This document shows, one piece after another, positions 4,044 through 34,041 of a stretch of 41,739 nucleotides of DNA. Each line of letters starts with the position of its first letter. Position 1 is the stretch's first letter. The DNA comes from an uncultured bacterium (GTDB lineage: Bacteria; B130-G9), in the NCBI GenBank assembly GCA_965372715.1, contig CBDVDH010000033.1:1-41739 (forward strand). The letters run 5' to 3'. The translations under genes and the position numbers were made by a program. Under the pieces are notes generated by a model. The model searched no databases, had not been told where the DNA came from, and was given only the letters and a program-made list of their open reading frames with translations.

Positions 4044-4099
4044 TCGCCATAGTAGCCTGCTTGTCCGCCATAACCCTGGCGGCGGCTACGTCGGCTGAA
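4044..4099 (+). repeat. Palindromic repeat family A with a family C copy (4060-4086) nested in its loop
   Basis: Arms TCGCCATAGTAGC (4044-4056) and GCTACGTCGGCTGAA (4085-4099) match 11305-11340; the loop contains CTTGTCCGCCATAACCCTGGCGGCGGC. Confidence 0.8.
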
Positions 4100-4113
4100 A
4101 GGGAGCGACTATT

Positions 4114-5424
4114 TTGCGCGTCAGGCGATACGAGGCCGAGAACATGAAAACGGCCCTCAGGAATATCCGGGACGAGCTCGGGCCCAACGCTTTCGTTCTC
4201 TCGACACGTCGCATCAATAGAAAGGACAAGTTCGGCAGACTGAAGACACTCATTGAGGTGAGCGCAGCCTCCGACGTGGTGCAGGTGAGTAACTCCAAGC
4301 AAGATGCGGCGCCCGTCGGGGCGGGTTCAGCCGACGGAGCCAGGGCTTTCAGCCGCCGTAGCTCTTCGAGCTACTATGGCGAAGGAGGCGCTATGGCGAA
4401 GTCCGCTCGAGACTCCGACATGGTCGGCTCGCTCCAGAGTCAGGTCGATCAGCTCAAAAGCGAGCTTGCGTTATTGGGGGGACAACATCCGGCGCAGGCG
4501 ATCGAGAGTATCAAGGAAGAGATAGTTGAACTAAAGGATTTGGTTGAGTTCGCAACGGATCAATGGGCAGAGCAGACCGTCAATGACTATGGCCCGATTT
4601 TGGGCGCGCTGTTTCGCCGGTTGAAGCGCTCGGATGTCGATCACAGGTTGGCGACGAAACTGATTGCGATAACGTCAAGGGAGCTTGCGAAGTGCCCAAA
4701 GATCGACGAAAAGGAATCGCTCAAGGTGCTCTTTGACGTGATGAAGCGCCAGACGCTGGTATCGGGGTCGATAGAGCTTCTAGAATCAGGTCCTAAAACC
4801 GTTGTCCTTATCGGCCCGACCGGTGTTGGCAAGACGACTACGCTTGCCAAAATCGCCGCCCAATACTCTATGTTCAGAAAGAAGAAGGTCGGTCTCTTAA
4901 CGATAGACACGTTCCGAATAGGGGCAGTAGAGCAGCTCAGGACCTACGCGAACATCCTCGAGCTGCCCCTCAAGGTCGCCAACACCCCGGAACAGATGCG
5001 GAAGTTCGTTTCGGATTACAGCGGCATGGACCTTGTGCTCATCGACACGGGTGGGAGAAGCCAAAAGGACAAGGCTAAGATGGCGGAGCTATTAAACTTC
5101 GTCGGTGGGCGCGACGATATGTATTACCAAGTGCATCTGCTCTTGAGCGGCGCAACGAAGAATAGGGACTTGGTGGAAATCACTCGAGAGTTTGGAAAGG
5201 TGCCTACGGATTATGTCATCTTCACCAAGCTCGACGAGTGCAATAGCTTCGGTGGGATACTAAATGAGATTCTGTGGACGCAGAAGCCGGCCAGTTATCT
5301 CACGACAGGCCAGAGCGTCCCCGATGATATTGAGGTGGCTGAGGCGGGTCGTATTGTGGAACTCATTCTGACAAGTACTTTCCAAAAGAAGGTGTCCGGC
5401 GCCTTGGGTAAGAGGGCCAAGTGA
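4114..5424 (+). CDS. flhF: Flagellar SRP-family GTPase FlhF
   Basis: GPTGVGKTTTLAK, DTFRIGAVEQL, DTGG, TKLDE, GQSVPDDI. Confidence 0.96.
   Translation: MRVRRYEAENMKTALRNIRDELGPNAFVLSTRRINRKDKFGRLKTLIEVSAASDVVQVSNSKQDAAPVGAGSADGARAFSRRSSSSYYGEGGAMAKSARDSDMVGSLQSQVDQLKSELALLGGQHPAQAIESIKEEIVELKDLVEFATDQWAEQTVNDYGPILGALFRRLKRSDVDHRLATKLIAITSRELAKCPKIDEKESLKVLFDVMKRQTLVSGSIELLESGPKTVVLIGPTGVGKTTTLAKIAAQYSMFRKKKVGLLTIDTFRIGAVEQLRTYANILELPLKVANTPEQMRKFVSDYSGMDLVLIDTGGRSQKDKAKMAELLNFVGGRDDMYYQVHLLLSGATKNRDLVEITREFGKVPTDYVIFTKLDECNSFGGILNEILWTQKPASYLTTGQSVPDDIEVAEAGRIVELILTSTFQKKVSGALGKRAK
4326..4403 (-). repeat. Nested pair of family A repeats in frame inside flhF
   Basis: Outer arms TTCAGCCGACGGAGC ... 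CTATGGCGAAGTC enclose inner TTCAGCCGCCGTAGC-TCTTCGA-GCTACTATGGCGAAG; reverse complement of the 11305-11340 element. Confidence 0.8.
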
Positions 5425-6374
5425 CGAACGACCAGGCCCTCAAGCTGCGTCAACTTGTGGCGCACGAGCGTCGAAAGTCCGCGGCGCACGACACGAGCTT
5501 AGCCATCGGGCCTATTGCCGGAGCGCTTGTGGCGGAGCGGGCAGAACGCCCCGGCGCAAGGGTGATAGCGGTAACAAGCGGGAAGGGCGGCGTCGGCAAG
5601 ACAGTTATTACGGCGAATCTGGCGGTTTCGTACGCAATTTCTGGCAAGCGAGTGATGCTGCTTGATGCGGATTTCGGTCTGGCGAATCTCGACGTTGTGT
5701 TAGGGCTCTCGGCCGAGAGAAACATCCGCGACGTCGTTTCTGGGGAAGCCACCATCGGGGATATTATCATTGAAGGCCCGGAAGGACTGAGGCTGGTTCC
5801 GGCGGGGTCTGGGATACGCGAGCTAGCCGACCTCACACAATCGCAGGTCACGGGCCTTTTGGATGAGGTGCTCGGCTATGATGAGCAAGTTGATGTGTTC
5901 TTAATAGACACTGCGGCGGGGATAGCCGCGGGCGTCGCAGGCATTCTTCTGTCGGCTGGCGAAGTTATCATCGTGGCTGAACCAGAACCGACTGCGGTGC
6001 TCGACGCTTACGCGGTCATCAAGACCCTTGTGTCCCGTCGGCCCGACGCAAGCGTTTACGTGGTGGCCAACTGTGTCGTTTCCGATGAGCAGGGACTGAC
6101 TGTTTTCAAGAATCTGCAGACGGTTGCAGAGAGGTTCCTGGACAAACAGCTCGTTTACTTAGGGTCGGTCCCGCTTGATCCGCGTCTCAAAGATGCGGTT
6201 AAGATCCGCAAGCCGAGCCTGACTGAGTTTCCCAACTCCCAATTCAGCATCGCGATACGCAAACTGGCACGGACGATCGACCGTCTTGACAACAATGAAG
6301 ACCAGCTCAGAGGCGGGATATCGGGCTTTTTCAGTCGTATGCTTAGTGGAGGCGCCGATGAGTGCACCCGATAA
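5421..6374 (+). CDS. flhG: MinD/ParA-family flagellar ATPase FlhG (FleN)
   Basis: SGKGGVGKT deviant Walker A, DADFGLANLD, DTAAGI, PEPTAVLDAYA; overlaps the flhF stop. Confidence 0.93.
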   Translation: MTNDQALKLRQLVAHERRKSAAHDTSLAIGPIAGALVAERAERPGARVIAVTSGKGGVGKTVITANLAVSYAISGKRVMLLDADFGLANLDVVLGLSAERNIRDVVSGEATIGDIIIEGPEGLRLVPAGSGIRELADLTQSQVTGLLDEVLGYDEQVDVFLIDTAAGIAAGVAGILLSAGEVIIVAEPEPTAVLDAYAVIKTLVSRRPDASVYVVANCVVSDEQGLTVFKNLQTVAERFLDKQLVYLGSVPLDPRLKDAVKIRKPSLTEFPNSQFSIAIRKLARTIDRLDNNEDQLRGGISGFFSRMLSGGADECTR

Positions 6375-6732
6375 TGAGAGGCTGGAAACTGAAGGACCGC
6401 GGGATTGGTCGCGCGGGAGGCCGCCGATTAGGCTAGCTCAGGGCAGGATGGGTGCACTGTTGGCGGCGGTTGCGGGGCTGATCGTTCTTGTGTTTTCCAT
6501 CTCCCAGCAAAGAAGCGTTATCGAGCTCTGCCGTTCGCTGGTAACGTCGATTCTGATCTTTTGGCTCCTTGGATGGTGCTGTGCATTTGCCATGAACTGG
6601 CATTTTCGCTCAGCTTACAGACGGCTGGCGGCAATTGAGCGAAAGAAGGTTGCCGAAGCGGAAGATGCGAAGGCTAACCACGCGCGCTCTGAAGACAACG
6701 TGGTTGACGAAAACCAGACTAGTCCTGCATAG
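6358..6732 (+). CDS. Small two-TM protein, FlgV-like by position
   Basis: ATG 6358 with GGAGG at 6348-6352; two hydrophobic helices and a charged tail; lies between flhG and fliM. Confidence 0.7.
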   Translation: MSAPDNERLETEGPRDWSRGRPPIRLAQGRMGALLAAVAGLIVLVFSISQQRSVIELCRSLVTSILIFWLLGWCCAFAMNWHFRSAYRRLAAIERKKVAEAEDAKANHARSEDNVVDENQTSPA

Positions 6733-6769
6733 TGTTGCGCAAGAGCACGAAACATAGGGATATTTAAGA

Positions 6770-7837: not shown

Positions 7838-7906
7838 AAGACACTTGACGAGAATGTCGAGAATGTGATGATCAATGGGAGCAAAGATAGCAGGCTCTGT
7901 TTGAGA

Positions 7907-7946
7907 GCAGACTTCGTTCGCCGCCTGGCGAACTATGTCGGCTGAA
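7907..7946 (+). repeat. Palindromic repeat family B (40 bp)
   Basis: GCAGACTTC-GTTCGCC-GCCT-GGCGAAC-TATGTCGGCTGAA; matches copies at 17317, 22173 and 32365. Confidence 0.85.
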
Positions 7947-7978
7947 CTGGAGCAGCGGAAGGGCGCCTCGCGGCGCCG

Positions 7979-9013
7979 ATGGGACTTGAAATGACCGAAG
8001 ATGCAGCGTTCTTGACGTTGCCATTAGCGCCGGAAGGAGAGCTTGGGCCACAGTATAATGTGATTTCTGGCGTCTTCCAGAAGCTGCCGGATGTGCTCAA
8101 GGAGACGCTTGGCATAATACTGGGCGCAGAGATAGAGGTCTCGGAGCCCAAGATGGCTTCTTTCTCGAAGGAAGAATTCGCTGCCGCCATCGACCCGGCG
8201 GCCATGTGCCTCGTCCATACAACCTTCTCCGAGGGGATTGAAGGGGCTTCGTTCTTAATTGCCAAGAATGACACAGCAAAAGTTCTGGTCGAGATCATTC
8301 TTGGCGCGCCTTTAGAGGGTGAGGACGAAGGGCTTTCTGCCGATTCGATGGACGCATTTCTTAAGCTGGTCAACCAGATATGCGGGAAGGTGAACCTGAG
8401 CTTCTCGGAGGTTGTGGGAAGCACAGTCAGCACGGGCACGTTCACCGCATTTGACAAGGAATCTCAAGAGCTATCGGAGTTGATTCCTGATGGTGACGCG
8501 TTCTGCGCGGAGCTCGGAGTCTCCGCGGCCGATAAGCTTGAAGGGGCCGTTTTCTTTCTCTATTCAGCGTCCGCTGTTGAACAGCTCGCCGCCGCTTCTG
8601 AGGCGCCTGAAGGACCTTCGATGGACGATACAATCGTCGAGAGCCAGGCCGAGGAACCGGAGGCCCCAGCGCCCAGGCTAGAGTCGGAACCCTCCGAGGT
8701 CGCGGCAGAGGCCGACTTGTCCGCCCTAGCGTCAGCGGAGGCGGAGACGGATGAGCGGCTCAAGGTCATCATGGATATGGAGATGCCTGTCCACGTCAGA
8801 TTCGGCGAGACGCAGATGCACATAAAGGACCTTCTCCAGCTCGGCGCCGGCTCGATCATAGAGCTTAACAAGTCCGTCGATGCACCGGTCGAACTCGTCG
8901 TGAACGAGGACCTCGTCATCGCCGAGGGCGAGGTCGTTGTGGTCGAATCGAACTTCGCTATTCGCATAACTGGGGTTAAGAGTAAGGCCTATCGCATCAA
9001 GGGCCTCGGGTAG
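7979..9013 (+). CDS. fliY: FliY-like switch protein (CheC-like domain plus FliN/SpoA domain); start may be 7991
   Basis: C-terminal FliN domain (VRFGETQMHIKDLLQLGAGSIIEL, IAEGEVVVV), N-terminal CheC-like region and acidic linker; follows fliM. Confidence 0.85.
   Translation: MGLEMTEDAAFLTLPLAPEGELGPQYNVISGVFQKLPDVLKETLGIILGAEIEVSEPKMASFSKEEFAAAIDPAAMCLVHTTFSEGIEGASFLIAKNDTAKVLVEIILGAPLEGEDEGLSADSMDAFLKLVNQICGKVNLSFSEVVGSTVSTGTFTAFDKESQELSELIPDGDAFCAELGVSAADKLEGAVFFLYSASAVEQLAAASEAPEGPSMDDTIVESQAEEPEAPAPRLESEPSEVAAEADLSALASAEAETDERLKVIMDMEMPVHVRFGETQMHIKDLLQLGAGSIIELNKSVDAPVELVVNEDLVIAEGEVVVVESNFAIRITGVKSKAYRIKGLG
8716..8750 (+). repeat. Palindromic repeat family C in frame inside the fliY linker
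   Basis: CTTGTCCGCCCTAGCGTCAGCGGAGGCGGAGACGG; 31/35 identical to 9016-9050. Confidence 0.8.
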
Positions 9014-9015
9014 GG

Positions 9016-9050
9016 CTTGTCCGCCATAGCTTCAGCGGAGGTGGAGATGG
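9016..9050 (+). repeat. Palindromic repeat family C overlapping the helicase start
   Basis: CTTGTCCGCCATAGCTTCAGCGGAGGTGGAGATGG; contains GGAGG (9037-9041) and ATG (9047). Confidence 0.8.
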
Positions 9051-10957
9051 CTGACGTAGCCTCGATTTTTGGCAAGGGCGGCCCGCTGGCGAGGACCATC
9101 AAGAACTTCGAGCAGCGCCCTGACCAAGCGCAGATGGCAAGGCTCGTGTGGGAAGCGATTCAGACCAAGCGCCACCTAATCGTCGAAGCTGGTACCGGAA
9201 TCGGCAAGAGCCTCGCCTACTTAATCCCGGTCATCGCAAGCCGCAAGAAGGCGATCGTCTCAACCAAAACCAAGACGCTTCAGGAGCAGCTCCTCAACCA
9301 CGATCTGCCGCTGCTCCGGAAAGCTTCAGGGACTCGTTTTACCGCAACCTGCTTGAAAGGAAGGGGCAATTACCTCTGCCTGAAGAGGTTTAGGGACTTC
9401 GAGTCGCAGCCGCTGTTCGTTTTCCCTCGTGAGATCAAATACTTCCGCCAGATACAGAACTGGGCGAAGCGAACGGGAGTTGGCGACCGTTCGGAGCTGC
9501 ACGCCTTGCCCGAGAAGCTAGCGGTTTGGACTGACATCTGCTCGCAAGGGGACCTCTGCACAGGTCCGAAATGTCAGTTCGTGAGGGACTGTTTCTTAGC
9601 TAAGGCGCGTGAGGCGGCAGACCGGGCTGACATCGTCGTCATTAATCACCACTTGTTCTTCGCGAATCTTGCCAATCGGTTGTGGACGGATACGTCGATG
9701 TTGCCGGAATGCGAATTGCTAGTCTTTGATGAGGCGCATGATATCGAGGAGGTTGCATCACAGTTTCTGGGTGTCTCCGTTGGGCCTGGGCAGATCGGCG
9801 ATCTCGTGAACCGAATTGGCCGGCAGATCAGCCTCGAGAAAGTCGAGGTCGAAGGATTGGCCTCGAGGCTCAATAACGTTCAGAAGGCAAGCAGAGATTT
9901 CTTCGGGCGTTTTACGGCGCTGCGTGATGGGACTTTCAAGCTGATGGATGACATGTTCGATGCCGCATCCCTTGATGCACGGGACCAGCTCTGCAAGCAG
10001 CTTATGGCGCTTGCCAAGTCGCTTGCCAACATTGCATCAGGTGGGCTCGACGTTTTTGAGCCCCTTTCTCGCCGATCCCGCGAAACGGCTCATTCCATAA
10101 CCGCTGCGTGCGACCTCAAAGATGAACGCCTCGTTCATTGGGCGGAAGCGAGAGATGGAAGCATACAGCTCAAGGGGACCCCGATCAGCCTTGCTGGAAC
10201 GTTTGCAGAGCATGTATTCGCAAAGGTCCCGACCGTGATATTGACCTCCGCCACCCTCTCCTCGGAGCGATCGTTCAATTATATCAAGAGCCGCCTCGGC
10301 ACGCCGGATCCGCACGAATTGATGGTCAGCTCTAGTTTCGACTTCAGGAAGCAAGCGCTGCTCTACATCCCGAGGCGCCTGCCACTGCCCGACGATCCTC
10401 TGTTTGTCAAAATGGCGGCAGCCGAGATTGTCAAGATACTCAAGAGAAGCAGCGGCAAGGCCTTCGTTCTCTGCACCAGCAACGCCAACATGAGTGCGTT
10501 GCACGAGATTGTGAGCGGCAAGATCGAGCAGCGCTGCTTCATCCAAGGCGAGATGCCCAACGCGGCGTTGCTCGAGAAGTTCCGCCGCGACGTTGGCTCG
10601 GTCCTTTTCGCGACCGCGAGCTTCTGGCAGGGCGTTGACGTCCAGGGCGAGGCGCTGAGCTGCGTCATAGTCGATAAGCTGCCGTTCGCCGTTCCGAGCG
10701 ACCCCATTATTGAGGCGCGTATCGAGCGGATACGGTCCGAAAATGGCAATCCGTTCTATGAGTTTCAGGTTCCGCAGGCGGTAATCGCGTTGAAGCAGGG
10801 CTTTGGTCGGCTGATAAGAACTAAGACCGACCGCGGCGTCCTCTCGATACTTGATAAGCGGATACTGGACAAGGCCTACGGGCGCAAGTTCCTTGAGAGC
10901 CTGCCGCCCTGCCCCATCACCCACGACATCGAGGCCCTCGATCGATTCTTCAGGTAG
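9047..10957 (+). CDS. ATP-dependent DNA helicase, DinG/YoaA family with Fe-S cluster
   Basis: Q motif FEQRPDQ, EAGTGIGKSLAYL, FDEAH, LTSATL, FWQGVD, QGFGRLIR; Cys cluster. Confidence 0.94.
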   Translation: MADVASIFGKGGPLARTIKNFEQRPDQAQMARLVWEAIQTKRHLIVEAGTGIGKSLAYLIPVIASRKKAIVSTKTKTLQEQLLNHDLPLLRKASGTRFTATCLKGRGNYLCLKRFRDFESQPLFVFPREIKYFRQIQNWAKRTGVGDRSELHALPEKLAVWTDICSQGDLCTGPKCQFVRDCFLAKAREAADRADIVVINHHLFFANLANRLWTDTSMLPECELLVFDEAHDIEEVASQFLGVSVGPGQIGDLVNRIGRQISLEKVEVEGLASRLNNVQKASRDFFGRFTALRDGTFKLMDDMFDAASLDARDQLCKQLMALAKSLANIASGGLDVFEPLSRRSRETAHSITAACDLKDERLVHWAEARDGSIQLKGTPISLAGTFAEHVFAKVPTVILTSATLSSERSFNYIKSRLGTPDPHELMVSSSFDFRKQALLYIPRRLPLPDDPLFVKMAAAEIVKILKRSSGKAFVLCTSNANMSALHEIVSGKIEQRCFIQGEMPNAALLEKFRRDVGSVLFATASFWQGVDVQGEALSCVIVDKLPFAVPSDPIIEARIERIRSENGNPFYEFQVPQAVIALKQGFGRLIRTKTDRGVLSILDKRILDKAYGRKFLESLPPCPITHDIEALDRFFR

Positions 10958-11015
10958 GTCGGGCAGGAGCAGTGGGATGAGCAATGATGATCCCAACTTG
11001 CGGCCGCACAGTCCG

Positions 11016-11045
11016 TTGACCAATGCCGGGTTGCCGTGATAGGCT
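11016..11045 (+). promoter_or_regulatory. Possible sigma70 promoter for tatA
   Basis: TTGACC-18 nt-TAGGCT with extended -10 TG. Confidence 0.35.
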
Positions 11046-11098
11046 CTGAACTAGAGATAAGAAGACTCGCAAAGGGATTAACGTAGAGGAGAGAAGCG

Positions 11099-11299
11099 AT
11101 GTGGACGCCGGGGCCGACTGAGCTTATCATCATTCTCGTTATCGTCCTGATCATTTTCGGCGCCGGGAAGCTACCCGGCATCGGAAAGGCCCTTGGCAAG
11201 GGGATCAAGGAGTTCAAAGACGGCTCGACCGGCAAGGACGAGAAGACCGAGAAGGAGGACGACGAGAAAGAACCTGAAGAACCTGAGAAGACTGAGTAA
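11099..11299 (+). CDS. tatA: Twin-arginine translocase TatA/E subunit
   Basis: [36 protein letters not shown] with acidic tail; AGGAG upstream. Confidence 0.95.
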
Positions 11300-11304
11300 C
11301 GGCT

Positions 11305-11340
11305 GACTTCGCCATAGTAGCCCCGGCTACGTCGGCTGAA
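11305..11340 (+). repeat. Palindromic repeat family A (minimal copy)
   Basis: GACTTCGCCATAGTAGC-CCCG-GCTACGTCGGCTGAA, an imperfect hairpin between convergent genes. Confidence 0.85.
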
Positions 11341-11367
11341 AAGGCTCCGGTCATTTTATCGAGGCAG

Positions 11368-12486
11368 TCAGCCTTGATCGCAGAGCTCGCGGAACAGCCG
11401 CTCAATCTCGTCGATGTTCCGCTTTAGGGTGAAGTTCTGAAGGGCCGTCTCTCTAGCGTGCTCGCAAAGCCTCGTCCTGGCCACTTCGTCGTCGAGCACA
11501 TTCCTTAAGGCGTTGGCCAACGCTTCGTGCGAGCCGGGCTCGAAGAGCATCCCGTCCCGCCCGTTTGTTATAATCTCACTTGATGCGCCAGAGCACGTTG
11601 CCACAACTGCACACCCGCAAGCCATCGCCTCAACTGTTACAAGGCCAAATGGCTCCGCCTCGGAAGCTAGCGCCATAACGTCGAGCGAGCGCATCGCGTC
11701 CGGCATGTCCGAGATGCGGCCAACAAAAAGTATCTCGGATGACCGACCTGAATCCCTCACCATTGAACGGAGGCGCCGCAGGTATGGCCTGTTCTTGGGT
11801 CTCGTTGGGCCAGCCACCACGAACTTCGCCTCGTGTCCGCCTTGCAGAAGCAAAAGCGCCGCCTTCACGAAGACCTCCTGTCCCTTGTGCGGCGATACCT
11901 CGCCCAGGATTCCGACTAGACGTTCGTTTTCTCCAACGGCAAGCTGCTCGCGAAGCGACCTCGTGCCGTGGGGGACGAACTTCTCGACGTCGATGCCGTT
12001 CCTGACCGTTCGCACCCTGCTCGCGTCGATGAATGGGTGCTTGGTGAGCGTCTCCTTGACGGCGTCGGACACGGCAATGAATGCGTCAGCTGAGCTGAGC
12101 GTCCACTTGTGGAAGAGCGAGTTACCCAGCGGCAGCAGGATGTGGCGGGTAAGCACCAGCTTGGGCTTCGACGACGATAGGCGCCTGGCCAGCGCTGCGA
12201 ACATGTAGTCCGGCGGAGTATGTGCGTTGACTAGCTGCCAGCCATCTGCATCAATTATGCTGGCCAGTCTTCTGGCCGAGAACAGGCCCGCACCGCCGCG
12301 TTTTCTAGACATCGCGGCCTCTATGTTCGCGTTGCGAAGAGCACTCTGGAGCGAGCTGCCTCTCCTGACAACCGCGCCGATCAGGTGACCTCGAGCCTTG
12401 AGCCCTCGACACAGATCGATGAACACTCGCTCGCCGCCTCCGAAACCGGCCGCCGAATCTATCTGGAGGATCGATAACGGATTCAA
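11368..12486 (-). CDS. Glycosyltransferase family 4 (GT-B)
   Basis: GGGER N-terminus, NGID, KGQ, EPFGLVTVEAMACG. Confidence 0.93.
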   Translation of the reverse strand: MNPLSILQIDSAAGFGGGERVFIDLCRGLKARGHLIGAVVRRGSSLQSALRNANIEAAMSRKRGGAGLFSARRLASIIDADGWQLVNAHTPPDYMFAALARRLSSSKPKLVLTRHILLPLGNSLFHKWTLSSADAFIAVSDAVKETLTKHPFIDASRVRTVRNGIDVEKFVPHGTRSLREQLAVGENERLVGILGEVSPHKGQEVFVKAALLLLQGGHEAKFVVAGPTRPKNRPYLRRLRSMVRDSGRSSEILFVGRISDMPDAMRSLDVMALASEAEPFGLVTVEAMACGCAVVATCSGASSEIITNGRDGMLFEPGSHEALANALRNVLDDEVARTRLCEHARETALQNFTLKRNIDEIERLFRELCDQG

Positions 12487-16414: not shown

Positions 16415-16438
16415 GCGCACACAAATACGAAGCGAACG

Positions 16439-17316: not shown

Positions 17317-17356
17317 GCAGACTTCGTTCGCCGCGCGACGAACTACGTCGGCTGAA
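17317..17356 (+). repeat. Palindromic repeat family B (40 bp)
   Basis: GCAGACTTCGTTCGCCGCGCGACGAACTACGTCGGCTGAA between convergent genes. Confidence 0.85.
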
Positions 17357-20194: not shown

Positions 20195-20370
20195 TTTGGA
20201 CTGCGGTGGCTTGACACCGCTTTGGCTCGCCGCGGCTTGACGCGGCACTAGCTCTGACTGAGAACGGTCTATTCTCTGGATCGCCTCCTGCAAGGTCAAA
20301 AGAGCCAGTTATGAGAGGGTGGTGTCAAGCCGCCACCAATGAAAGCGGCGTCGGGCCGCCGCACTCCAAA
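20195..20370. repeat. REPIN/MITE-like element with 29 bp terminal inverted repeats and two inner hairpins
   Basis: TTTGGACTGCGGTGGCTTGACACCGCTTT (20195-20223) is inverted at 20342-20370 (24/29 match); inner hairpins with GGCTTGAC at 20229-20246 and 20318-20337. Confidence 0.75.
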
Positions 20371-20384: not shown

Positions 20385-22136
20385 TCAATCGGCGCAATGG
20401 GTCCTTGCAGCGTCTCTGCCCATACATGGCCATCCCTTCGAATTGATGGCCGCGTTGTAGGTCGAATCGTCGAACTCGAAACAGTAGATCATCCCACCAG
20501 TCAGCGGTTGAACGATCAGGTCGGTTTTGTTGTCGGCATCGATGTCGCCGAGGGCCGGGGCCATAGTGATTTTGTCGGAGAAGGGTCCAATATCGTAGAG
20601 CTTGCTCAGGCCGAGTCCCTGGCGGTACTTGTAAACGAAGATGTATCCGGGCGCGCGGTCTATGTCTGGGGAGGTCCCCACGATTACTTCCATATCCGTG
20701 TGCGTTTTGTCGATGTCGAAGACCAGCGGGGACGAGGCGCGGAAATGGGGTAAGCCGCACGTAGCGGTTGTCGCCGCGGCTACGGCAATCATGGGGCCGA
20801 CGAAGTCAACAACGTATAGCGTGCCCTGGTCCGAAAGCGCCACGATCTCGTTTTGGCCATCGTTGTCCAGGTCCGCGATGGCAGGATCGGCCGTGAACCC
20901 GTCCGGGACTTCATTGCCGCCATTCTGGCACTGCTGAACACTCGCCTCAACAGACCAATCTAATACGATCGTTGCCCGTGTACCGTTGGGCGCTAGGTGC
21001 ATTACGCAGACCTTCCCATCGGCAACCGGACTGCACAGAGTGCCTGGACCCGAGCACACGACGATATTGCTGATTATGTTCTCATCCTGATACTGCACGA
21101 TCTTGCCGATCGCCGGCGAGGACATCGAGGCAATTGTCGGATCAGCCACGTCGCCGAGGTCATAAGTCGCGAGCTGTGTGCCGTCGCGCTTGAAGACGAT
21201 GACCCGGCTCTCGTACCTGTATCCCTCGACGGTCTGATAGAACCGGTCGACGTAGAACACCACCTCATTCCCGGGGAAGTTCTGCCCTCCCAACAGGTCA
21301 CCAACTGCTGGCGAGTTTGACACGTAGTAGTCATCCGGAGCCTTGTCCCAGGCAGCGATGTAGCTCCCGTCGGCATTGAGGGCTGTGATCTTTCCCGCCT
21401 CTGGCGCTTGGCTGAGGTCGTCCCAACCCCTGGTCCCAAAAAGCACTTCCGGATAATTATCCCCGCCTACCTTCCAGCCATCCAGATCAACCAGGCATAT
21501 CCCGCCCGAGATAGGTCCCCGATTAACATCCTTCGGGAAGCCGGAGACTTCCGTCCCATCCGAGTTGAACGCGTAAACCCTGGAGTCAGGGTTCTTTGGG
21601 CCGTAGGCCGGATTGATGTCCGAACCGATAACGATTTCCGGCTTGCTGTCGCCGTCGATGTCAGCAATGGCCATACAGGAGCACGGATGACCGGTCATCG
21701 TGACAGGGAAGTTACGGGCGTTTAAGCCGGCCGACTTGATGACCCAGATAGAATCGTAACACCTGTGTATCTGGGGGGAGCCGTAAACGAGGCATTCCGC
21801 CGTGCATGGCATCAGCGCCTCCTGGGTGCTGTCCGCATCGTCCACGTCGTAGTAGAGCGCGGCCCCGCAGCACCACGTGGCCGAGGCTCTCGGGAAACCC
21901 GGCATCATGCTTACGCCAGCAGGCAGTAAGACACCAGAAGTACCAACCACCGGCTGGGGCGCGGCGCTCCTGGTCTTAAACTTGGCGTTGACAGGGACCA
22001 GCTTCTTCAACGCGCCTTTCGGCGGCGGACACGCACGGACTTCCTGAAACTCCGAAGCGGCAAATCCGAGCGCCAGGACCAAAGCAACTGCCAGCCCAAA
22101 CCTGGGCGTTGCTCGAACACTCTTGACTCGCTTCAT
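20385..22136 (-). CDS. Secreted FG-GAP/VCBS repeat protein
   Basis: Signal peptide; repeated ADIDGD/ADLDND/GDIDAD, GFP motifs, terminal WPxxGRDAART. Confidence 0.85.
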   Translation of the reverse strand: MKRVKSVRATPRFGLAVALVLALGFAASEFQEVRACPPPKGALKKLVPVNAKFKTRSAAPQPVVGTSGVLLPAGVSMMPGFPRASATWCCGAALYYDVDDADSTQEALMPCTAECLVYGSPQIHRCYDSIWVIKSAGLNARNFPVTMTGHPCSCMAIADIDGDSKPEIVIGSDINPAYGPKNPDSRVYAFNSDGTEVSGFPKDVNRGPISGGICLVDLDGWKVGGDNYPEVLFGTRGWDDLSQAPEAGKITALNADGSYIAAWDKAPDDYYVSNSPAVGDLLGGQNFPGNEVVFYVDRFYQTVEGYRYESRVIVFKRDGTQLATYDLGDVADPTIASMSSPAIGKIVQYQDENIISNIVVCSGPGTLCSPVADGKVCVMHLAPNGTRATIVLDWSVEASVQQCQNGGNEVPDGFTADPAIADLDNDGQNEIVALSDQGTLYVVDFVGPMIAVAAATTATCGLPHFRASSPLVFDIDKTHTDMEVIVGTSPDIDRAPGYIFVYKYRQGLGLSKLYDIGPFSDKITMAPALGDIDADNKTDLIVQPLTGGMIYCFEFDDSTYNAAINSKGWPCMGRDAARTHCAD

Positions 22137-22172: not shown

Positions 22173-22235
22173 TTCAGCCGACATAGTTCGCCTCTTTATT
22201 CGGCGAGTCTTCGACGCGCGGGGAACGAAGTCTGC
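22173..22235 (-). repeat. Palindromic repeat family B with expanded loop (63 bp)
   Basis: Minus strand GCAGACTTCGTTC ... GGCGAACTATGTCGGCTGAA, with 23 extra bases relative to the 40 bp copies. Confidence 0.8.
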
Positions 22236-22238
22236 CGA

Positions 22239-25952: not shown

Positions 25953-26043
25953 ACTAACCTCCGGCTAAGTTGCTAAAGATGCGGTTAAGGGTGGACCCAC
26001 TATATTGGCAGATTCCACCAGAATGCCCCGAAATATGTCCGCA

Positions 26044-26072
26044 ATACTAGCCAAGTCCGCTAGGCGAGTCAA
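26044..26072 (-). promoter_or_regulatory. Probable sigma70 promoter for the S8 protease gene
   Basis: Minus strand TTGACT-17 nt-TAGTAT. Confidence 0.5.
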
Positions 26073-26081
26073 CCTCGCGGC

Positions 26082-27473: not shown

Positions 27474-27886
27474 AGCTGTCCTTCTGTTGATTCGGATTGC
27501 TCTCTATCTTGTTCTCGTCATGGAACTGCTGAAGTATCCTAGCGCATAGTGGGGATAATCAAAAGCAGGAATTAGGGGTTCTTGGCAATGCGGCTACTGG
27601 AGATAGGACGGAATCCACGGCCATGACTAGTGCTCCTAACGGGGAGTTGGGCCGGCAGATCGAACCAGCCTTCGTGATTGCGATTGAGGTTAAACCTATG
27701 TCCCGCTTGACACGAAAAGGAATGATGACCTGAAATTTCTTGCTTTTTGAGTAGCTTGGATGTTTATATTGAAGAGTTAGGGTATGTGTAGCGGCAGTTG
27801 GCGACTTGAGCTGAGATCATGTTTCAGCTGGGCAATTTGCGCGTCCAAGCCTGGGGCTAATTTGTTTTTTAAGGGGAACAAGGACG

Positions 27887-28555
27887 ATGCCGGCCGAGGT
27901 TGAGCTATCTAGAAACCTGTTTTACATAGTGATCACTGGCCAGTTCAATCCGGCCATTCTCAATCATCAGTTCCTCGTGGAAAAGGCCAAGGCAATACCC
28001 CCAGGCTGGGATGAACCTGAGGTTGTTATCCTGCCAGTCATGGCCGCCTTGGATTACAAGAAGAAAGGCCTGAAGGTCCTAGTCGAGCTAACCTCGTTTG
28101 TCGTGTCGCATGAATTGATACGCGCTGACGTTCCCAGAGTGCTCCGCGTGGCTAGATCTTACATGAAAAGACTAGATGATACACCTGTGTCCAGGATATC
28201 ACTGCATTCACGGGGACAGGTGTGTTTTCCAACACCTGAGAACGTTGCCGATTTCGAAGGTTGGATACTCAGGGACAAGAGGGCATTGGTTTCCTGCCTC
28301 GATACAGATACTCTTGACGTGTCTGTCAAACTCTCCTATGGTCTTCGCGATTTTAGCGCGACGATGAACTTGGGGCCATTAGATAGCCAACAGAACCATG
28401 TAGAATACTGGCTGCATTACGATAAGGAAGTTTGTGACGCACGAGAGATCATCAGAGTAATGTCAGATAAGAATCAAATCACGGAGCTTCTCGTCACCGG
28501 CGACAGGAAGTTAAAGAACCTGTCGATGGGAGGACCAACGTTTGCCTACCACTAG
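27887..28555 (+). CDS. Hypothetical protein resembling TIGR04255-like proteins
   Basis: 222 aa with purine-rich RBS; IVITGQFNPAIL N-terminal motif; family call from memory only. Confidence 0.55.
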   Translation: MPAEVELSRNLFYIVITGQFNPAILNHQFLVEKAKAIPPGWDEPEVVILPVMAALDYKKKGLKVLVELTSFVVSHELIRADVPRVLRVARSYMKRLDDTPVSRISLHSRGQVCFPTPENVADFEGWILRDKRALVSCLDTDTLDVSVKLSYGLRDFSATMNLGPLDSQQNHVEYWLHYDKEVCDAREIIRVMSDKNQITELLVTGDRKLKNLSMGGPTFAYH

Positions 28556-29105
28556 CGATGTGGCTGACTTAAAAAGAACAGAGGGGTTTATCCTCTCCAG
28601 CACCGTTCGAGATCGCTTGGAATCCACGATCGCGGCACTGACGTATGCAGCGCACCTGGGTCGCGCATTTCCGCAGCGAGGGATCGCGGTTGCCCTGAGT
28701 GGCATGCTTATTCACGCTGCGCAGAGATTCTCTCCTGTGGATACGTGGCTGCCGGGAGCGCTCGTCGGAAACGGTAAGGCGGCGGCACTGACTACATGGG
28801 GTTCTCACTCTCTTCCAGAATGGGTTGCCATTGCTGACGAAGAGGCTGAGGAGGATCGGCGTCGCCAGACTCAGGAGAAGAACTTCAATGCGTTCCTTGG
28901 GCTGCTTCCGCGACTTCTAGAAGACCATGCAGGAGAATACGCCCTTATCGTTCATGCGGAACTCCGGAAGGTGGATGGAGATTTGGAGGCTTTGATTCAC
29001 CATGCCTACTCGAAGTTCCCCGGCGCCATAGCTTTGATCCAACCTATACAGAAGGAACTTCCTAAGTCCTACGTTGGTGGCCCGCGGTCAGGTTCCGGTC
29101 GGTGA
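28542..29105 (+). CDS. Hypothetical protein with DUF5678-like C-terminal domain
   Basis: TTG with GGAGG at 28529-28533, overlapping the upstream gene; NFNAF...LL..HAGEYALI...AYSKFP. Confidence 0.6.
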   Translation: MPTTSDVADLKRTEGFILSSTVRDRLESTIAALTYAAHLGRAFPQRGIAVALSGMLIHAAQRFSPVDTWLPGALVGNGKAAALTTWGSHSLPEWVAIADEEAEEDRRRQTQEKNFNAFLGLLPRLLEDHAGEYALIVHAELRKVDGDLEALIHHAYSKFPGAIALIQPIQKELPKSYVGGPRSGSGR

Positions 29106-29112
29106 TCAATGA

Positions 29113-29520
29113 ATGGCACACGGTTGCGACTACGAAGGCAGCGAGATGGGGCTCCGGCCTTATCCAGTGGCGGTGGCAACGGTAAAGACCCCAGATCCCC
29201 AGGACCCGCGGCGAACGCGTGCGGACATCAAGTGCCTTGTGGACAGTGGAGCGGACAGGAGCGCGATGCCGGCACGGTTTCTCAGGCGACTGGGAGTGAC
29301 CAGCGGTTGGGAGGAGGATATCAAGGACTTCTCCGGGGAAACTAAGAGAATAGAAGCCTCCCACGTCCGGATAAGTCTGTGCGGCCGGAAGTGCGGATTG
29401 GTGGCCGTTGTCCGATTGAAAAACGGGTCCCTCGGGATTCTTGGAAGGGATGTCCTCAACCACTTCAAAGTCGTGCTAGACCCTCAGAAGTCGCCTAAAG
29501 GGCGCTGCGAGATCGAATAG
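29113..29520 (+). CDS. Clan AA (retropepsin-like) aspartic protease
   Basis: CLVDSGADRS catalytic motif and ILGRDVL; single 135 aa domain. Confidence 0.88.
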   Translation: MAHGCDYEGSEMGLRPYPVAVATVKTPDPQDPRRTRADIKCLVDSGADRSAMPARFLRRLGVTSGWEEDIKDFSGETKRIEASHVRISLCGRKCGLVAVVRLKNGSLGILGRDVLNHFKVVLDPQKSPKGRCEIE

Positions 29521-29572
29521 CGCAAGACGCATAGCCCGGGGCATGGTCTCGTGCACGTAACGGCCTCTTGTC

Positions 29573-30766
29573 CTACGGCTTTAAGTTGTCTGCCGGTGGC
29601 GCCTCCTCGATGGGGGTCCAATTCAGGATCGCATCGCGTGCCTTTTGAAGCTGGAGGTCGTCGTCCGCATCCCCTTTCGACGGGGCGGTGATGTCGGGCT
29701 CGAGGCCCAGGTTGTGCACTTTCTGACCGAAGGGGCCCAAATACTCCGACGTTGAGAGAATCACCCTCGTACCGTCTGTAGTGGCGATGCAGTCCGTGCC
29801 GAGGGCAAATCCGAATGTTTTTTCCCCCACGAGCCTTGCGATCCTATGCCCGCGCAAGCAAGCGGCAAGTACTTCCGCCTCGCCGACGGTGCGCTCGTTG
29901 ACAATAACGACGACAGGAACGACCTCGCGCATAGCGACAACGCTGCTATCTCTCGCGACCTTTTTCATGTTCGCCGCGCGGCGAATCGATTGGACGAAGA
30001 TGGGTCCTGACCTCACAAAGCGGCTGCAAATGTCCTTGACCTCTTCAATCGAGCCGCCGATGTTGTCTCTGACATCTATTATGATCCCCTTTAATCGAGA
30101 GGCTCCGATTAAAGATAGAGCCTCCTTGAACGTCTTGAACACGCCATCGGCGAACCTGCGAACCCTGAAGTGGAGGATACCGTCCTCGCCCACGGCATAA
30201 TCCGCCGGAAAAGAGGCGTAAATCTGGCGGTGGAGCTTTGCATGTTTCATCTTGAAGTCATTGGGGCCATAGACCGTCAACGTAACCTCGCTCTGTGGGT
30301 CGCCTTGCAGATTCCGCCGAAGCTCATCTAGCGTCAAGCCTCGAACTGAATGGCCATCAATCGCCGCTATCCTGTCGCCAGGCGCTATCTGAGAGCCAGC
30401 TGACGGTGAGTCGCTCTCACAAGAGATCACAATAAAAGCCCCGCCCTTCAACATGATGTTCAAGCCCAGGTCCGCCTGCGGTTGACGCCCCTCGTCGGCA
30501 AATACTACCGTTGAGCGAGCATCGAGGCTCGAGACGAGTCGCTTGGTCCCGTGTCTGAGCAGCTTGCCCATATCCACCTCATCAACGTAGAACTCGTCTA
30601 TCGTCCGAAGTGTCCGGACAAGCGTTGAGAGATAGGGGAAACAGGCCTCGAGCTCGCTTATCTTCGCCGCGCGGCGAACTCGCTCAGCTTGAGAAAGGCA
30701 AAATGTGAGGACCCCCAGTCCCGCAACAACGGCGATTGCCCACCGGACGAAGGGCTTGACACGCAT
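29573..30766 (-). CDS. S41/CtpA-like PDZ protein, probably catalytically degenerate
   Basis: ATG 30766 after AGGAGG; PDZ (GDRIAAIDG), IIDVRDNIGG, LVGEKTFG, GLEPDI. Confidence 0.85.
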   Translation of the reverse strand: MRVKPFVRWAIAVVAGLGVLTFCLSQAERVRRAAKISELEACFPYLSTLVRTLRTIDEFYVDEVDMGKLLRHGTKRLVSSLDARSTVVFADEGRQPQADLGLNIMLKGGAFIVISCESDSPSAGSQIAPGDRIAAIDGHSVRGLTLDELRRNLQGDPQSEVTLTVYGPNDFKMKHAKLHRQIYASFPADYAVGEDGILHFRVRRFADGVFKTFKEALSLIGASRLKGIIIDVRDNIGGSIEEVKDICSRFVRSGPIFVQSIRRAANMKKVARDSSVVAMREVVPVVVIVNERTVGEAEVLAACLRGHRIARLVGEKTFGFALGTDCIATTDGTRVILSTSEYLGPFGQKVHNLGLEPDITAPSKGDADDDLQLQKARDAILNWTPIEEAPPADNLKP

Positions 30767-30920
30767 CACTGCCCTCCTTTCGTTGCCTGTGAGAGTCCTG
30801 CTTGAAAACATGCGATAATCAGTCACGGACACGACCTGACAGTTTGGCGACTCTTCGCCTTTCGGCGGATCGGCAGCGTTGCGCTTCAGCCGAGAGGTCA
30901 GTCCGCCGGAAGCCGTCCGG

Positions 30921-31670: not shown

Positions 31671-31745
31671 CCTTGTTACCTCCGGTGAAATCGAAGATTG
31701 ATTGCATCCATGGAGGGCCATAGCCCTCTTGTAATTAGTCCTGTC

Positions 31746-31774
31746 TTTATAATAAGGCACGTATGGGATGTCAA
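31746..31774 (-). promoter_or_regulatory. Sigma70 promoter for the beta-barrel gene
   Basis: Minus strand TTGACA-17 nt-TATAAA. Confidence 0.65.
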
Positions 31775-31820
31775 GCACTCTCTTTAAGTCCAAAGCCCAG
31801 GGTGCAAAGCCGGGTCTTTG

Positions 31821-31850
31821 CGGAGGTTCGCCGACCGGCGAATCCGAAGT
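31821..31850 (-). repeat. Hairpin, possibly a degenerate family B repeat
   Basis: Minus strand ACTTCGGATTCGCC-GGTC-GGCGAACCTCCG shares the TTCGCC/GGCGAA stem. Confidence 0.35.
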
Positions 31851-31896
31851 TGAGGGGTGGCTGTCCCAAGTCCGGGCTTCTTCTGATCGCTGACTC

Positions 31897-34041
31897 TCAA
31901 AGCATAGAGGCGGGATCGACATCGACCGTCACGCGGATGTCAGAAGGCCCCATTTTGGCTCTTTGACCTCCGCTCACGCCATGGCGGACAAGCTTGAGGG
32001 CTTTGAGCCTTTCCAAGAGGAAACTGTGCAGCCGCGTGGAGCTATAGGAGCGCACAAAGGCCTGGAACCGATACCTGTCCTTGAGCTTCGCTATCGGCGC
32101 CTCGGCCGGCCCGAGTATGTGGATGTTATCGGACTGACCTGCCCGCAGGACCTCCCCTACACATTCAGCGGCCCTTGAAGTCCTCTTGTAATCCTTGCCG
32201 GACACCAAGAGGGACGCCAACCTCGTCAATGGCGGCAAACCCAATCTCGTCCGGAACTTCATCTCCTGCTCAAAGAACGATGTATAATCCTGCGCCGCGG
32301 CCGCCTTGATGGCGTAATGCTCGGGCGAATACGTCTGGAGAAGGACGGTTCCCCGCTTGGCGTGGCAGACCTCGTTCGCCGCTTTGCAGCTACGTCGGCT
32401 GAACCTGCCTGGCCGACCGCTGACCTGTGTCAGAAGCTGAAAAGTCCGCTCCGCAGCTCGAAAATCAGGCAGGTTGAGAATTGTGTCAGCGAGCACGACA
32501 ACTACCAGCGTCAGGTGCGGGAAATTGTGCCCTTTGGCGACGATCTGGGTGCCGACAATGATGTCAACCTCGCCTCTCGTAACGGCCGACAAGGCCCTCT
32601 CATATTTGCGCCTCGTCGAGATGGCGTCGCTGTCCATTCTCAGGATGCGTGCGTCGGGAAAAAGCCGAGCCGCCTCCTCTTGAACCTTCTCTGTTCCGAA
32701 ACCGATGAACTTGATCTGGTCCGAACGACATGCGTCGCACTGGGTCGGCACGGGTCGTCTTGTCCCACACAAATGGCAGACTAATGAGCTTCTAGCACTG
32801 TGGTATGTGAGCGTAATGTCGCAATGGTCGCACCGAAAGACGTGGCCGCACTTGCTGCAAATCAAGAACGGTGAAAACCCCCTTCGATTCATGAAGAGAA
32901 GCGCCTGCTCGCCGGCCGCAAGGGTTCTCCCCACGGCGTCAGAGGCCTCGTCGGCAAGGATCGACGAGCTCTTTTGCGCTTCCTGTCGCATATCGATCAC
33001 TTTCACGTCAGCCAATGGCCGTGAATCGACCCTTTGGCTCAGGAAGATGTATTGGTATTTCCCCCTGACAGAATTGTGAAACGTCTCAAGCGACGGGGTC
33101 GCGCCGCACAAGACCACGGGACACTTGAAGATTGAGCCTGAGACCACAGCAACGTCTCTTGCGTTGAAATGAGGCGCGCGCTCCTGCTTGTAGGTCGCCT
33201 CGTGCTCCTCATCGACGACGATGAGGCCCAGACGCGCAAGTGGTGCAAATACCGCCGAGCGGACGCCGATCATCACGTCAACCTCCCCGCGATAGGCCCG
33301 CTCCCACTGGTCCCGACGCTGCGCTGGCGTGAGTTTGCTGTGAAATATCCCTGCCCTGTCGCCGAATCTGCGAGCGAAAAGCGAAAGCAGCGCTGGCGTG
33401 AGGGATATCTCCGGGACCAGAATCAGCGCTTTCTTGCCTTTTTTCAGCACGTGTTCGGTCGCGCGAAGGAAAACCTCCGTCTTGCCGCTGCCCGTCACGC
33501 CGTGAAGCAGAATCGGTTTCGTATCCTTTGCGTCCGCCGCGGCGATTATCCTCGAAAGCGCATCGCGCTGCTCACTAGTGAGCTCGAGGTTCTCTGTCGC
33601 TTCGTCACTGTCGGTCCACAGGTCGGCCGGCAGCGAGGATATGATATCAATCGGCCGTCTCCCCCGCCTGCTGGTTCGCTCGACTCCGCCCGTGCTGATT
33701 TGCCCCTTAACTTCGCCAAGACCGTGTGGGACCGCCGCCTCAACTACCGTGCCAAGAGGCGCGAGATAATAGGACGCAACCCACTCAATGAGCTTCAGCA
33801 TTCTGCGCGACAGGACGGGCAAACTATCGACGACCGATATCAACTCCTTGACAGATGAGAGGCTGCAACTTGGGATGAGGCGTATGACGACGCCGATGCG
33901 CTGTCGGGTCCTCAGCTCGACTATCACTCGTTTGCCGACGGCTACGTCCCGGCTGAGATGCTGCGGAACGGCGTAAGTGAAGCACTTTTCTGCGCCGATG
34001 CCCAGGGAGACCTCGGCGAACTGTTTGTATGGATGATTCAT
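31897..34041 (-). CDS. priA: Primosomal protein N' (start uncertain: 34041, 34104 or 34110)
   Basis: GVTGSGKTEVF, LVPEISLT, DEEH, four CxxC motifs, PDFRAAER, C-terminal VDVDP. Confidence 0.96.
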   Translation of the reverse strand: MNHPYKQFAEVSLGIGAEKCFTYAVPQHLSRDVAVGKRVIVELRTRQRIGVVIRLIPSCSLSSVKELISVVDSLPVLSRRMLKLIEWVASYYLAPLGTVVEAAVPHGLGEVKGQISTGGVERTSRRGRRPIDIISSLPADLWTDSDEATENLELTSEQRDALSRIIAAADAKDTKPILLHGVTGSGKTEVFLRATEHVLKKGKKALILVPEISLTPALLSLFARRFGDRAGIFHSKLTPAQRRDQWERAYRGEVDVMIGVRSAVFAPLARLGLIVVDEEHEATYKQERAPHFNARDVAVVSGSIFKCPVVLCGATPSLETFHNSVRGKYQYIFLSQRVDSRPLADVKVIDMRQEAQKSSSILADEASDAVGRTLAAGEQALLFMNRRGFSPFLICSKCGHVFRCDHCDITLTYHSARSSLVCHLCGTRRPVPTQCDACRSDQIKFIGFGTEKVQEEAARLFPDARILRMDSDAISTRRKYERALSAVTRGEVDIIVGTQIVAKGHNFPHLTLVVVVLADTILNLPDFRAAERTFQLLTQVSGRPGRFSRRSCKAANEVCHAKRGTVLLQTYSPEHYAIKAAAAQDYTSFFEQEMKFRTRLGLPPLTRLASLLVSGKDYKRTSRAAECVGEVLRAGQSDNIHILGPAEAPIAKLKDRYRFQAFVRSYSSTRLHSFLLERLKALKLVRHGVSGGQRAKMGPSDIRVTVDVDPASML
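31965..31992 (-). repeat. Family C repeat in frame in the priA C-terminal domain
   Basis: Minus strand CTTGTCCGCCATGGCGTGAGCGGAGGT; 24/27 identical to 9016-9042. Confidence 0.75.
32365..32403 (+). repeat. Family B repeat (39 bp) in frame in priA
   Basis: GCAGACCTCGTTCGCCGCTTTGCAGCTACGTCGGCTGAA; encodes FSRRSCKAANEVC on the minus strand. Confidence 0.88.

Follow-up and report, generated by a model that had tools for sequence, protein, structure and literature searches.

A family of short hairpin repeats resembling repetitive extragenic palindromes, recently mobile and carried in frame within priA, flhF and other genes of an uncultured bacterium

Introduction

The window analysed here is a stretch of 41,739 nt, contig C33 of the draft genome of an uncultured bacterium of the lineage B130-G9 (assembly GCA_965372715.1, referred to as G000; 3.56 Mb in 112 contigs, 56.7% GC, 96% complete). 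It carries a flagellar export/switch cluster (fliR, flhB, flhA, flhF, flhG, fliM and a fliN-like gene), together with dinG, priA and genes for glycosyltransferases, endonuclease V, large FG-GAP, subtilase and immunoglobulin (Ig)-repeat proteins, an S41 peptidase and an outer-membrane beta-barrel protein. Between and within these genes lie copies of a family of short hairpin repeats, the subject of this report. A reading made from the sequence alone had proposed a small, non-autonomous mobile hairpin family that generates new peptide loops; the family's units, its empty sites in related genomes, its distribution and its possible mobiliser are described below.

Results

Units and copies of the repeat family

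The repeats share an arm, RCTAYGTCGGCTGAA, which with up to two mismatches matches the window eight times (at 4085, 4326, 4348, 7932, 11326, 17342, 22173 and 32389), against 0.27 matches expected, a number reached in none of 100 shuffles. Site reading and a repeat finder recovered all 12 units that had been placed in the window beforehand, with the two alternative left arms A and B and the type C copies at 4060, 8716, 9016 and 31966–31993. Five of these units lie in coding sequences, at four sites and with the frames open, two being in flhF, one in the fliN-like gene and two in priA. Throughout G000, left arm A gave 36 matches and its reversed control none, the reversed-motif controls of the motif searches ranging from 0 to 32. 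A covariance model trained on 25 units returned 38 copies at E ≤ 0.01 and 39 at E ≤ 0.1; type B is missed by this model, and all four of its copies in the genome lie inside the window, within 25 kb.

Type A units are 39 or 42 nt long (a few are 40 nt) and consist of GCNGAC, TTCGCC, ATA, GTAGC(Y), a loop region of 3–7 nt, (R)GCTAC, GTC and GGCTGAA. Type B (39–40 nt) retains the ends of A around a core formed by a 16-nt palindrome with the motif TTCGCC..GGCGAA. Type C, of about 30 nt, has a smaller version of the layout of A (CTTG, TCCGCC, ATA, GCC-TT-GGC, GAC, GGCGGA) and is more variable, with lengths of 27–31 nt of which 30 is the commonest (14 of 43 pattern matches, some of them by chance). 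Longer loci are nested: composites of 69 nt are a type C unit within the loop of a type A unit, and the 81-nt composite is likewise a nested insertion, the one in flhF having a 42-nt A′ variant (GCCTCC..GGCGGCTGAA) within a 39-nt A at GT^AG. The composite upstream of flhF (4037–4099) is matched by the covariance model at E = 3.6e-7 and folds as a nested hairpin with z = −2.3.

The shared arm had been thought to close each unit as a simple hairpin, which was not borne out. The minimum-energy fold of single-stranded type A DNA is a 6-nt 5′ tail (GCNGAC) followed by a two-stem hairpin with a 3 × 3 internal loop and one bulged T (TTCGCC / ATA / GTAGCY-loop-RGCTAC / GTC / GGC(T)GAA). The two strands of the 42-nt type A unit have energies of −8.4 and −9.1 kcal/mol (z = −1.7 and −2.0), and the 39-nt A copy of the window folds with z = −0.9. 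In the 39-nt copy in priA the hairpin has decayed (z = +0.5), and the type B copy at 7907–7946 gives the best fold of the set, at −11.1 kcal/mol (z = −3.9). Pairing is kept in 95% of alignment cells, with an invariant outer stem and one covarying pair only (UA/CG/GC, in 9 of 20 distinct rows).

A 16-nt perfect palindrome, TTCGCCGCGCGGCGAA, occurs twice in the S41 peptidase gene (29971–29986 and 30663–30678, read as IRRAAN and VRRAAK), where the gene exceeds that of the congener introduced below by 6 and 9 nt. A 14-mer inside it occurs 94 times in the genome and is also the core of type B.

Empty sites in a congener and recent mobility

The genome of the congener G001 has DNA 85–98% identical to G000 over the aligned blocks of the window, mostly about 96%. 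The phylum comparison comprised seven genomes, all of one family (G000, G001 and five sister genomes). Logan contigs from three runs (X1–X3, with at most 0.25 of the sampled words) represent a G001-like strain, maybe the source of G001 itself, and may not be independent of it.

For 22 of the 31 copies examined in G001, both flanks could be placed in G000. Seventeen of these sites are filled there, at equal length, and five are exactly empty, lacking 42 nt each. Of the five, one lies in metG, the gene for methionyl-tRNA synthetase, between the catalytic and the anticodon-binding domains; two of the five share paralogous flanks belonging to another repeat and may not be independent events. Empty sites of G000 are also found within the window (Table 1). 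In priA, G001 carries in frame the same 81-nt composite that G000 has in flhF, at a different site, and its PriA is 27 residues longer than that of G000; in the S41 peptidase gene its type C insert is read as ..LVRHSLSGG... Since these presence/absence differences separate two genomes whose DNA is about 96% identical, the family was still moving after the two sampled species had separated.

The priA gene (31897–34110, 2.2 kb) has received three insertions over the two congeners, two common to both and one found in G001 only, against 0.03–0.1 expected (Poisson P of 4e-6 to 2e-4), an excess to be taken as a lead and not as a test because the window was chosen for its repeats.

Orthologues outside the genus

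The 39-nt unit of priA is missing, exactly from GCAGAC to GCTGAA, in all three aligned relatives outside the genus (G002, G004 and G006) and is present in G001; in an alignment with Klebsiella PriA, of solved structure (4NL4), a gap of 13 residues opens there too. Likewise, the 30-nt unit in the C-terminal part of priA corresponds to an exact gap of 30 nt, or 10 residues, in the same three relatives, and is again present in G001. The flhF composite falls in a variable N-terminal region where 24–27 residues are missing in all four relatives compared (G002, G003, G004 and G006), and a 14-residue insert in an M28 peptidase is missing in 5/5 relatives outside the genus. A transglutaminase-like protein is shorter by 10–18 residues in 4/4 relatives, also in a variable region. 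The linker of the fliN-like protein is 9–14 residues longer in the host than in four relatives, with no alignment gap placed at the element, and the copy at 8716 is, on this comparison, plausibly an insertion. Had sister-genus orthologues shared the peptides, the proposal of a mobile family would have suffered; they are without them, with exact gaps of 39, 30 and 42 nt.

Three intergenic copies were also followed in the relatives. At 9016, G002 and G006 have a stop codon within this stretch, upstream of the dinG ATG, and G001 has an additional 71-nt related insertion just upstream of the copy. The type A copy at 11302–11340 is probably old, because a model match is found in the syntenic block of G006 (C56:6143–6181, the block corresponding to window positions 8075–12480). 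At 17317, G001 and the X1–X3 contigs are without a stretch of 135–138 nt that includes the unit; this indel being larger than the unit, the locus does not provide a precise empty site.

Across G000, 12 of the 37 pattern-defined A and B loci fall inside called genes. Seven lie well within genes supported by Pfam or by orthologues, namely those for FlhF, PriA, the Ig-repeat protein, a DEAD-box helicase, the transglutaminase-like protein, the M28 peptidase and a lipoate-protein ligase, and the rest are one degenerate sense copy and four ambiguous cases at 5′ ends.

Insertion signature, orientation and reading frames

No duplication of target bases accompanies the units: junctions are clean at three of the five polymorphic sites, with an ambiguity of 1–3 nt at the remaining two, and the priA sites show no duplication. 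The base before the unit is usually G, and the flank following the terminal GCTGAA is NNGG, with G at +3 in 32/55 and at +4 in 40/55 right-end matches, chance matches included. As the empty sites carry NNGG, these bases are part of the target. Targets are often AAGGAG-like, so that units come to lie directly upstream of ribosome-binding sites, and insertion 5′ of NNGG accounts for the many copies located shortly before start codons, co-oriented with the gene. Between co-directional genes, 10 copies are in the sense and 2 in the antisense orientation. Inside genes 10 are antisense and 2 sense, which is not clearly different from the 2:1 ratio expected from the open frames.

Testing length modulo three, as had been suggested, gave multiples of three (3n) in all eight loci inside called genes, where an open frame requires it, and in 21 of 29 other loci, the latter because the main variants are of 39 and 42 nt and type C is mostly of 30 nt. 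That all three subfamilies are 3n has a chance probability of about 1 in 27 and is suggestive only. The consensus of type A is free of stop codons in three of the six frames, one forward and two reverse. In-gene inserts add 10, 13 or 14 residues and composites 23 or 27, the peptide being FSRRS..YYGEV or SADVA..ATMAKSA according to the frame.

Two candidate targeting rules were set aside. A lagging-strand bias of the kind seen in IS608-type targeting was not supported, as unit orientation followed neither GC skew nor gene-strand bias. Three metagenome contigs (L135, L137 and L142) and priA hinted that units enter at the foot of hairpins already present; this was dropped as the 3′ flanks fold no better than random 36-mers (p = 0.53). 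The same contigs have single A units within an outer palindrome (CACGA..TCGTG, CCCGGTCG..CGACCGGG), an arrangement resembling insertion into the loop of another hairpin.

Distribution beyond the genome

The family is numerous, and the concern that few additional copies might exist was not realised: model matches over the seven family genomes number 38 in G000, 43 in G001 and 5, 6, 1, 1 and 0 in the five sister genomes. A search of 34 unrelated sample genomes of the same domain with a 17-nt arm gave one forward match and one control match. Of 185,579 species representatives, three carry an exact 30-base pattern, two of these apparently being G001 and G006 and the third an unrelated bacterium, G041. 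The latter, with a 4.5-Mb genome without nucleotide similarity to G000 and a gatB 47% identical, has eight model matches, mostly of the A′ variant. Gene context was considered as a common feature, the gatB neighbourhood of G041 being the example, and was not reproduced in G000.

In metagenome contigs, the exact 30-base pattern was found in 34 stretches, nine of which are without blastn similarity to G000, have GC contents of 0.45–0.66 and show variable 5′ tails. Furthermore, a relaxed pattern matched four viral contigs representing two viruses. One is a Mu-like phage (L173, L174 and L175, three contigs 99.9% identical) whose GemA (Mu gp16-like) gene, adjoining an endolysin gene, holds two units; in L173 (4694–5410) these are tandem direct units 53 nt apart, in two frames of one open reading frame (ORF) of 238 residues. 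The core is thus widespread at low copy number, with an amplification in this genus. That near-identical cores turn up in unrelated bacteria and in a Mu-like phage is suggestive of horizontal spread, in which phages may have had a part. The reading as a mobile hairpin family survives, qualified among other things by the family not being private to this lineage. Rfam gave no match at the gathering threshold; with E up to 10 weak matches appear, the best to a snoRNA family at E = 0.027 and 15 bits, compared with a cut-off of 38 bits.

Search for a mobiliser

Scanned ORFs of at least 100 residues in the window matched no transposase family in Pfam, in agreement with the proposal that the mobiliser lies elsewhere. 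The expected partner, a REP-associated tyrosine transposase (RAYT; REP, repetitive extragenic palindrome) or another Y1 transposase flanked by the arms, was searched for in G000, the five relatives and G041 and was not found. All the Y1 genes examined in these genomes are flanked by other repeats, GTAG-type REPs among them; those of G000 are given in Table 1.

Several leads were rejected. Two genes intervene between the RAYT gene of G002 and a type A copy 1.6 kb away, and this RAYT is accompanied by GTAG REPs of its own. A 9-mer common to the units and to a RAYT-adjacent repeat (the CCGGCTTCAGCCGAGG family, 37 copies) is coincidental, the neighbouring GCAGAC being a variant of the consensus of that family. 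The ‘CnGA foot’ given for class 3 Y1 structures in the relevant passages of PMC6006769 fits GC[N]GAC here, and was dropped since the tails of copies elsewhere are GCCAAC or CCTAC. Downstream of three near-identical copies on C38, C48 and C107 lies a multi-copy gene that, on reading its translation, is tgt-like and not a transposase.

Table 1. Repeat units and empty sites in the window, and Y1 transposase genes elsewhere in G000.
Feature	Position	Strand	Context and reading
Type A with type C in loop	4037–4099	+	Between flhA stop (4034) and flhF start (4114), directly 5′ of AGGGAG
81-nt composite (42-nt A′ in 39-nt A)	4326–4406	−	Within flhF, antisense to gene, read as SADGARAFSRRSSSSYYGEGGAMAKSA
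Type B, 40 nt	7907–7946	+	Between fliM and fliN-like gene
Type C, 30 nt	8716–8745	+	Linker of fliN-like gene, sense, read as LSALASAEAE; 87% identical to 9016 copy
Type C, 30 nt	9016–9045	+	Intergenic, between fliN-like stop and dinG ATG (9047); supplies GGAGG of dinG
Type A, 39 nt	11302–11340	+	3 nt past stop of small acidic-protein ORF, between convergent genes
Type B, 40 nt	17317–17356	+	Downstream of endonuclease V gene
Type B with extra inner sequence, 63 nt	22173–22235	−	Upstream of FG-GAP gene starting at 22136
Empty site in S41 peptidase gene	29665–29668		30-nt type C in G001 and in X1 and X2 contigs, not in X3
Type C, 30 nt	about 31963–31993 (boundaries shiftable by 1–2 nt)	−	C-terminal domain of PriA, sense, read as LVRHGVSGGQ
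Empty site in priA	32130–32137		In-frame 81-nt composite in G001; pairwise alignment
Type B, 39 nt	32365–32403	+	In priA, antisense, read as FSRRSCKAANEVC directly after helicase motif VI (GRPGR)
RAYT-like Y1 genes	C41:34607–34951; C28:21312–21656		GTAG REPs on both sides
IS200-like Y1 genes	C15:38747–39091; C2:94653–94997 (in-frame TAG)		Three other hairpin repeats in arrays downstream

Other variable features of the window

Other short repeat families are numerous in G000, some with about 100 copies. One abundant family (TTTGGAGTGCGGCGGCTTGAC..-like) forms a pair of 47-nt inverted repeats at 20195–20370, a region of strain-variable length matched by many foreign contigs. At 27532–29592, G001 and the X1–X3 contigs have about 195 nt in place of a 2.06-kb block with three small genes, one of which encodes a retropepsin-like aspartyl protease. 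The 100 nt between dinG and the small acidic-protein ORF (10960–11060) correspond to about 2 kb in G001. At 36808–37725, the gene of the 1141-residue Ig-repeat protein contains three 300-nt tandem repeats, 72–74% identical.

Discussion

The numerous copies and the orthologues without the peptides support a small non-autonomous mobile hairpin family that generates peptide loops. We take the units, with a probability of roughly 0.85, for copies of a REP-type selfish DNA element that is small and non-autonomous. Discrete, full-length units insert exactly and without target duplication, with the GCTGAA end placed directly 5′ of NNGG; they also insert into each other to give the composites, and have reached about 40 copies in this genus. 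Copies landing in tolerant loops or linkers of proteins persist as in-frame inserts, as in priA, flhF and the M28 peptidase gene and, in the congener, in metG and the S41 peptidase gene. The mobile form is presumably a folded single strand on which a structure-specific enzyme acts in trans. For this enzyme our best guess is a Y1/HUH transposase (RAYT or IS200-like), since enzymes of this class insert without duplicating the target and recognise hairpins bearing a short 5′ tail; we hold this assignment tentatively, and think it may well be wrong.

Several observations weigh against a mobile element driven in this way. An A, B or C motif was found within 1.5 kb of none of the 24 Y1_Tnp loci (4 in G000, 11 in the five relatives and 9 in G041), and copy number does not follow Y1 type, since the one shared by both high-copy genomes is also present in G003, which has no copies. 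Identity between the Y1 proteins of G041 and those of G000 is 33% at most, and in the draft assembly of G000 a transposase in a collapsed repeat could be missed. Hairpin stability is only modest and the covariation is thin. The strand of the element shows no association with local GC skew (10/11 versus 10/6, Fisher p = 0.5), a weak test on a draft assembly. The presence/absence comparison ran systematically only from the G001 copies to G000, and the gene calls came from a home-made codon-usage caller that chooses the longest ORF, leaving four loci near 5′ ends ambiguous.

Comparison with known elements places the family near the REPs. In the parts of PMC6006769 that concern them, REPs are described as 21–65 nt long with a 5′ guide tetranucleotide, along with REPtrons, double-foot REPs and in-frame REPs. 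Corresponding sections of PMC3733652 (Di Nocera et al., 2013) describe REPs wholly within ORFs in several species, encoding short peptides and with a separate panel of DNA synthesis and repair genes, as well as REPs nested in palindromes and CGTC REPs without a dedicated transposase. In-frame REP-like repeats in genes, DNA synthesis and repair genes included, are thus already published in these passages. The present units resemble the REPs and bacterial interspersed mosaic elements (BIMEs) of PMC6006769, as far as its description of them goes, in being short imperfect palindromes in tens to hundreds of copies, mostly intergenic, with several families per genome, and in having a hairpin with a short single-stranded 5′ tail and in-frame genic copies. 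With 39–42 nt and 38 model matches they are within the range of a high-copy imperfect palindrome of about 20–65 nt. They resemble the REPs covered in PMC3733652 in having no dedicated transposase found, copies within ORFs and insertion within palindromes.

The differences are equally specific. Classical GTAG REPs, which G000 also has flanking its RAYT genes, carry a free 5′ GT[AG]G at the foot of the hairpin; here the GTAG lies within the inner stem, paired with CTAC, and the free 5′ tail is GCNGAC in the copies of G000 and GCCAAC or CCTAC elsewhere. Less clear is the comparison with double-foot GTAG REPs, in which 5′ GT[AG]G and 3′ C[TC]AC surround a long hairpin beside a RAYT gene of subclass 2.4; here GTAG..CTAC encloses only 2–3 further base pairs and no RAYT is adjacent. 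CGTC-tagged REPs have the tag, a stem of 8–9 bp, a loop of 4–5 nt and a CCA tail, whereas CGTC here is 3′ of the inner stem with no stem after it. None of the 24 Y1 loci is flanked by copies as in a REPtron, and in place of the inverted dimers of BIMEs and REPINs the loci are single or nested, tandem direct copies being seen only in the phage. Moreover, unlike REPs, the main units of this family are 3n long. A miniature inverted-repeat transposable element (MITE) has terminal inverted repeats and a target duplication; the ends of these units, GCAGAC.. and ..GCTGAA, are not inverted copies and no duplication is found.

Rickettsia palindromic elements (RPEs), of which the RPE-1 type is about 100–150 bp long, are likewise inserted in frame in functional genes and add peptides, as the units do in priA, flhF and the M28 peptidase gene. 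The units described here are set apart from RPEs by their 30–42 nt, by a free-living uncultured lineage and by their occurrence in unrelated hosts and a phage. With non-autonomous elements derived from IS200/IS605, in so far as PMC6006769 treats them, they share the absence of a duplication, hairpin ends and insertion by a short specific sequence; they differ in being one hairpin of about 40 nt without separate left and right ends, in the degenerate NNGG flank, in showing no strand bias with GC skew and in that a cognate TnpA was not found. A text search of the literature for the 14-base core gave no match, supplementary REP lists being outside this search. Thus this is a new REP-like family of a known kind, which departs from the canonical GTAG, CGTC, MITE and REPtron definitions, published supplementary catalogues lying outside the comparison.

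A bolder version of the selfish-element reading would make the A core (TTCGCC-ATA-GTAGC..GCTAC-GNC-GGCTGAA) a cross-phylum, phage-carried unit independent of Y1 and RAYT enzymes, using a host or phage function not yet tied to the movement of repeats; a length of 3n and frames free of stops would then adapt it to a habitat of coding DNA, and replication genes such as priA would be preferred targets. We regard this as unlikely.

New copies might instead be templated on existing ones during repair or gene conversion, through strand invasion or template switching at stalled forks, with no transposase involved. The missing target duplication and the lack of an associated transposase would be explained, local copying would predict that all four type B copies lie within 25 kb in the window, and the three independent priA insertions in two genomes, where far fewer than one was expected, fit as well. 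Yet the insertions are full-length units with fixed ends, the clean junctions among them are without microhomology to the unit, identical ends recur in unrelated genomes and a phage, and the consistent NNGG flank fits enzymatic target choice better; copying of this kind seems to us improbable.

We judge it still quite improbable that the unit is primarily a functional cis element kept by selection, such as an mRNA-stabilising or translation-modulating hairpin or a protein-binding site, with its spread secondary. The near-identical core in unrelated organisms, the 10:2 sense orientation between co-directional genes and the many copies less than about 50 nt from a downstream start, directly 5′ of a Shine–Dalgarno-like AAGGAG, would all agree with such a role, and REPs are known to act on mRNA, as noted in the portion of PMC3733652 that deals with this. 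The orientation bias, however, follows from the oriented NNGG target, the gatB neighbour of G041 is not repeated in G000 and no gene context is conserved. Furthermore, in-gene copies are mostly antisense and translated in two frames, the fold of the priA copy is lost, close genomes differ by presence or absence, and no Rfam family is matched at the gathering threshold, nor at permissive ones beyond the weak hits given above.

We give almost no credence to the in-gene copies being a selected peptide module, which the recurrence of FSRRS..YYGEV in several proteins might suggest, or an artefact of assembly or binning, since this DNA is translated in two different frames and lies mostly outside coding sequence, its open frames follow solely from units of 3n length without stops in three of six frames, and the inserts occur in the separately assembled G000 and G001, with X1–X3 contigs spanning the priA copy without a joint or indel there among the matches listed.

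As a selfish REP-like element, the family offers clean material on how such repeats move and on why some families are without a transposase, having fixed ends, exact filled and empty alleles in two close genomes, the NNGG rule, nesting, and occurrence in unrelated hosts and a phage. Units of this kind also account for puzzling in-frame insertions and for broken contigs in metagenome-assembled genomes, and the G001 assembly breaks at two of them. Through these insertions, essential proteins (PriA beside motif VI, methionyl-tRNA synthetase and FlhF) gain loops of 10–27 residues in one step.

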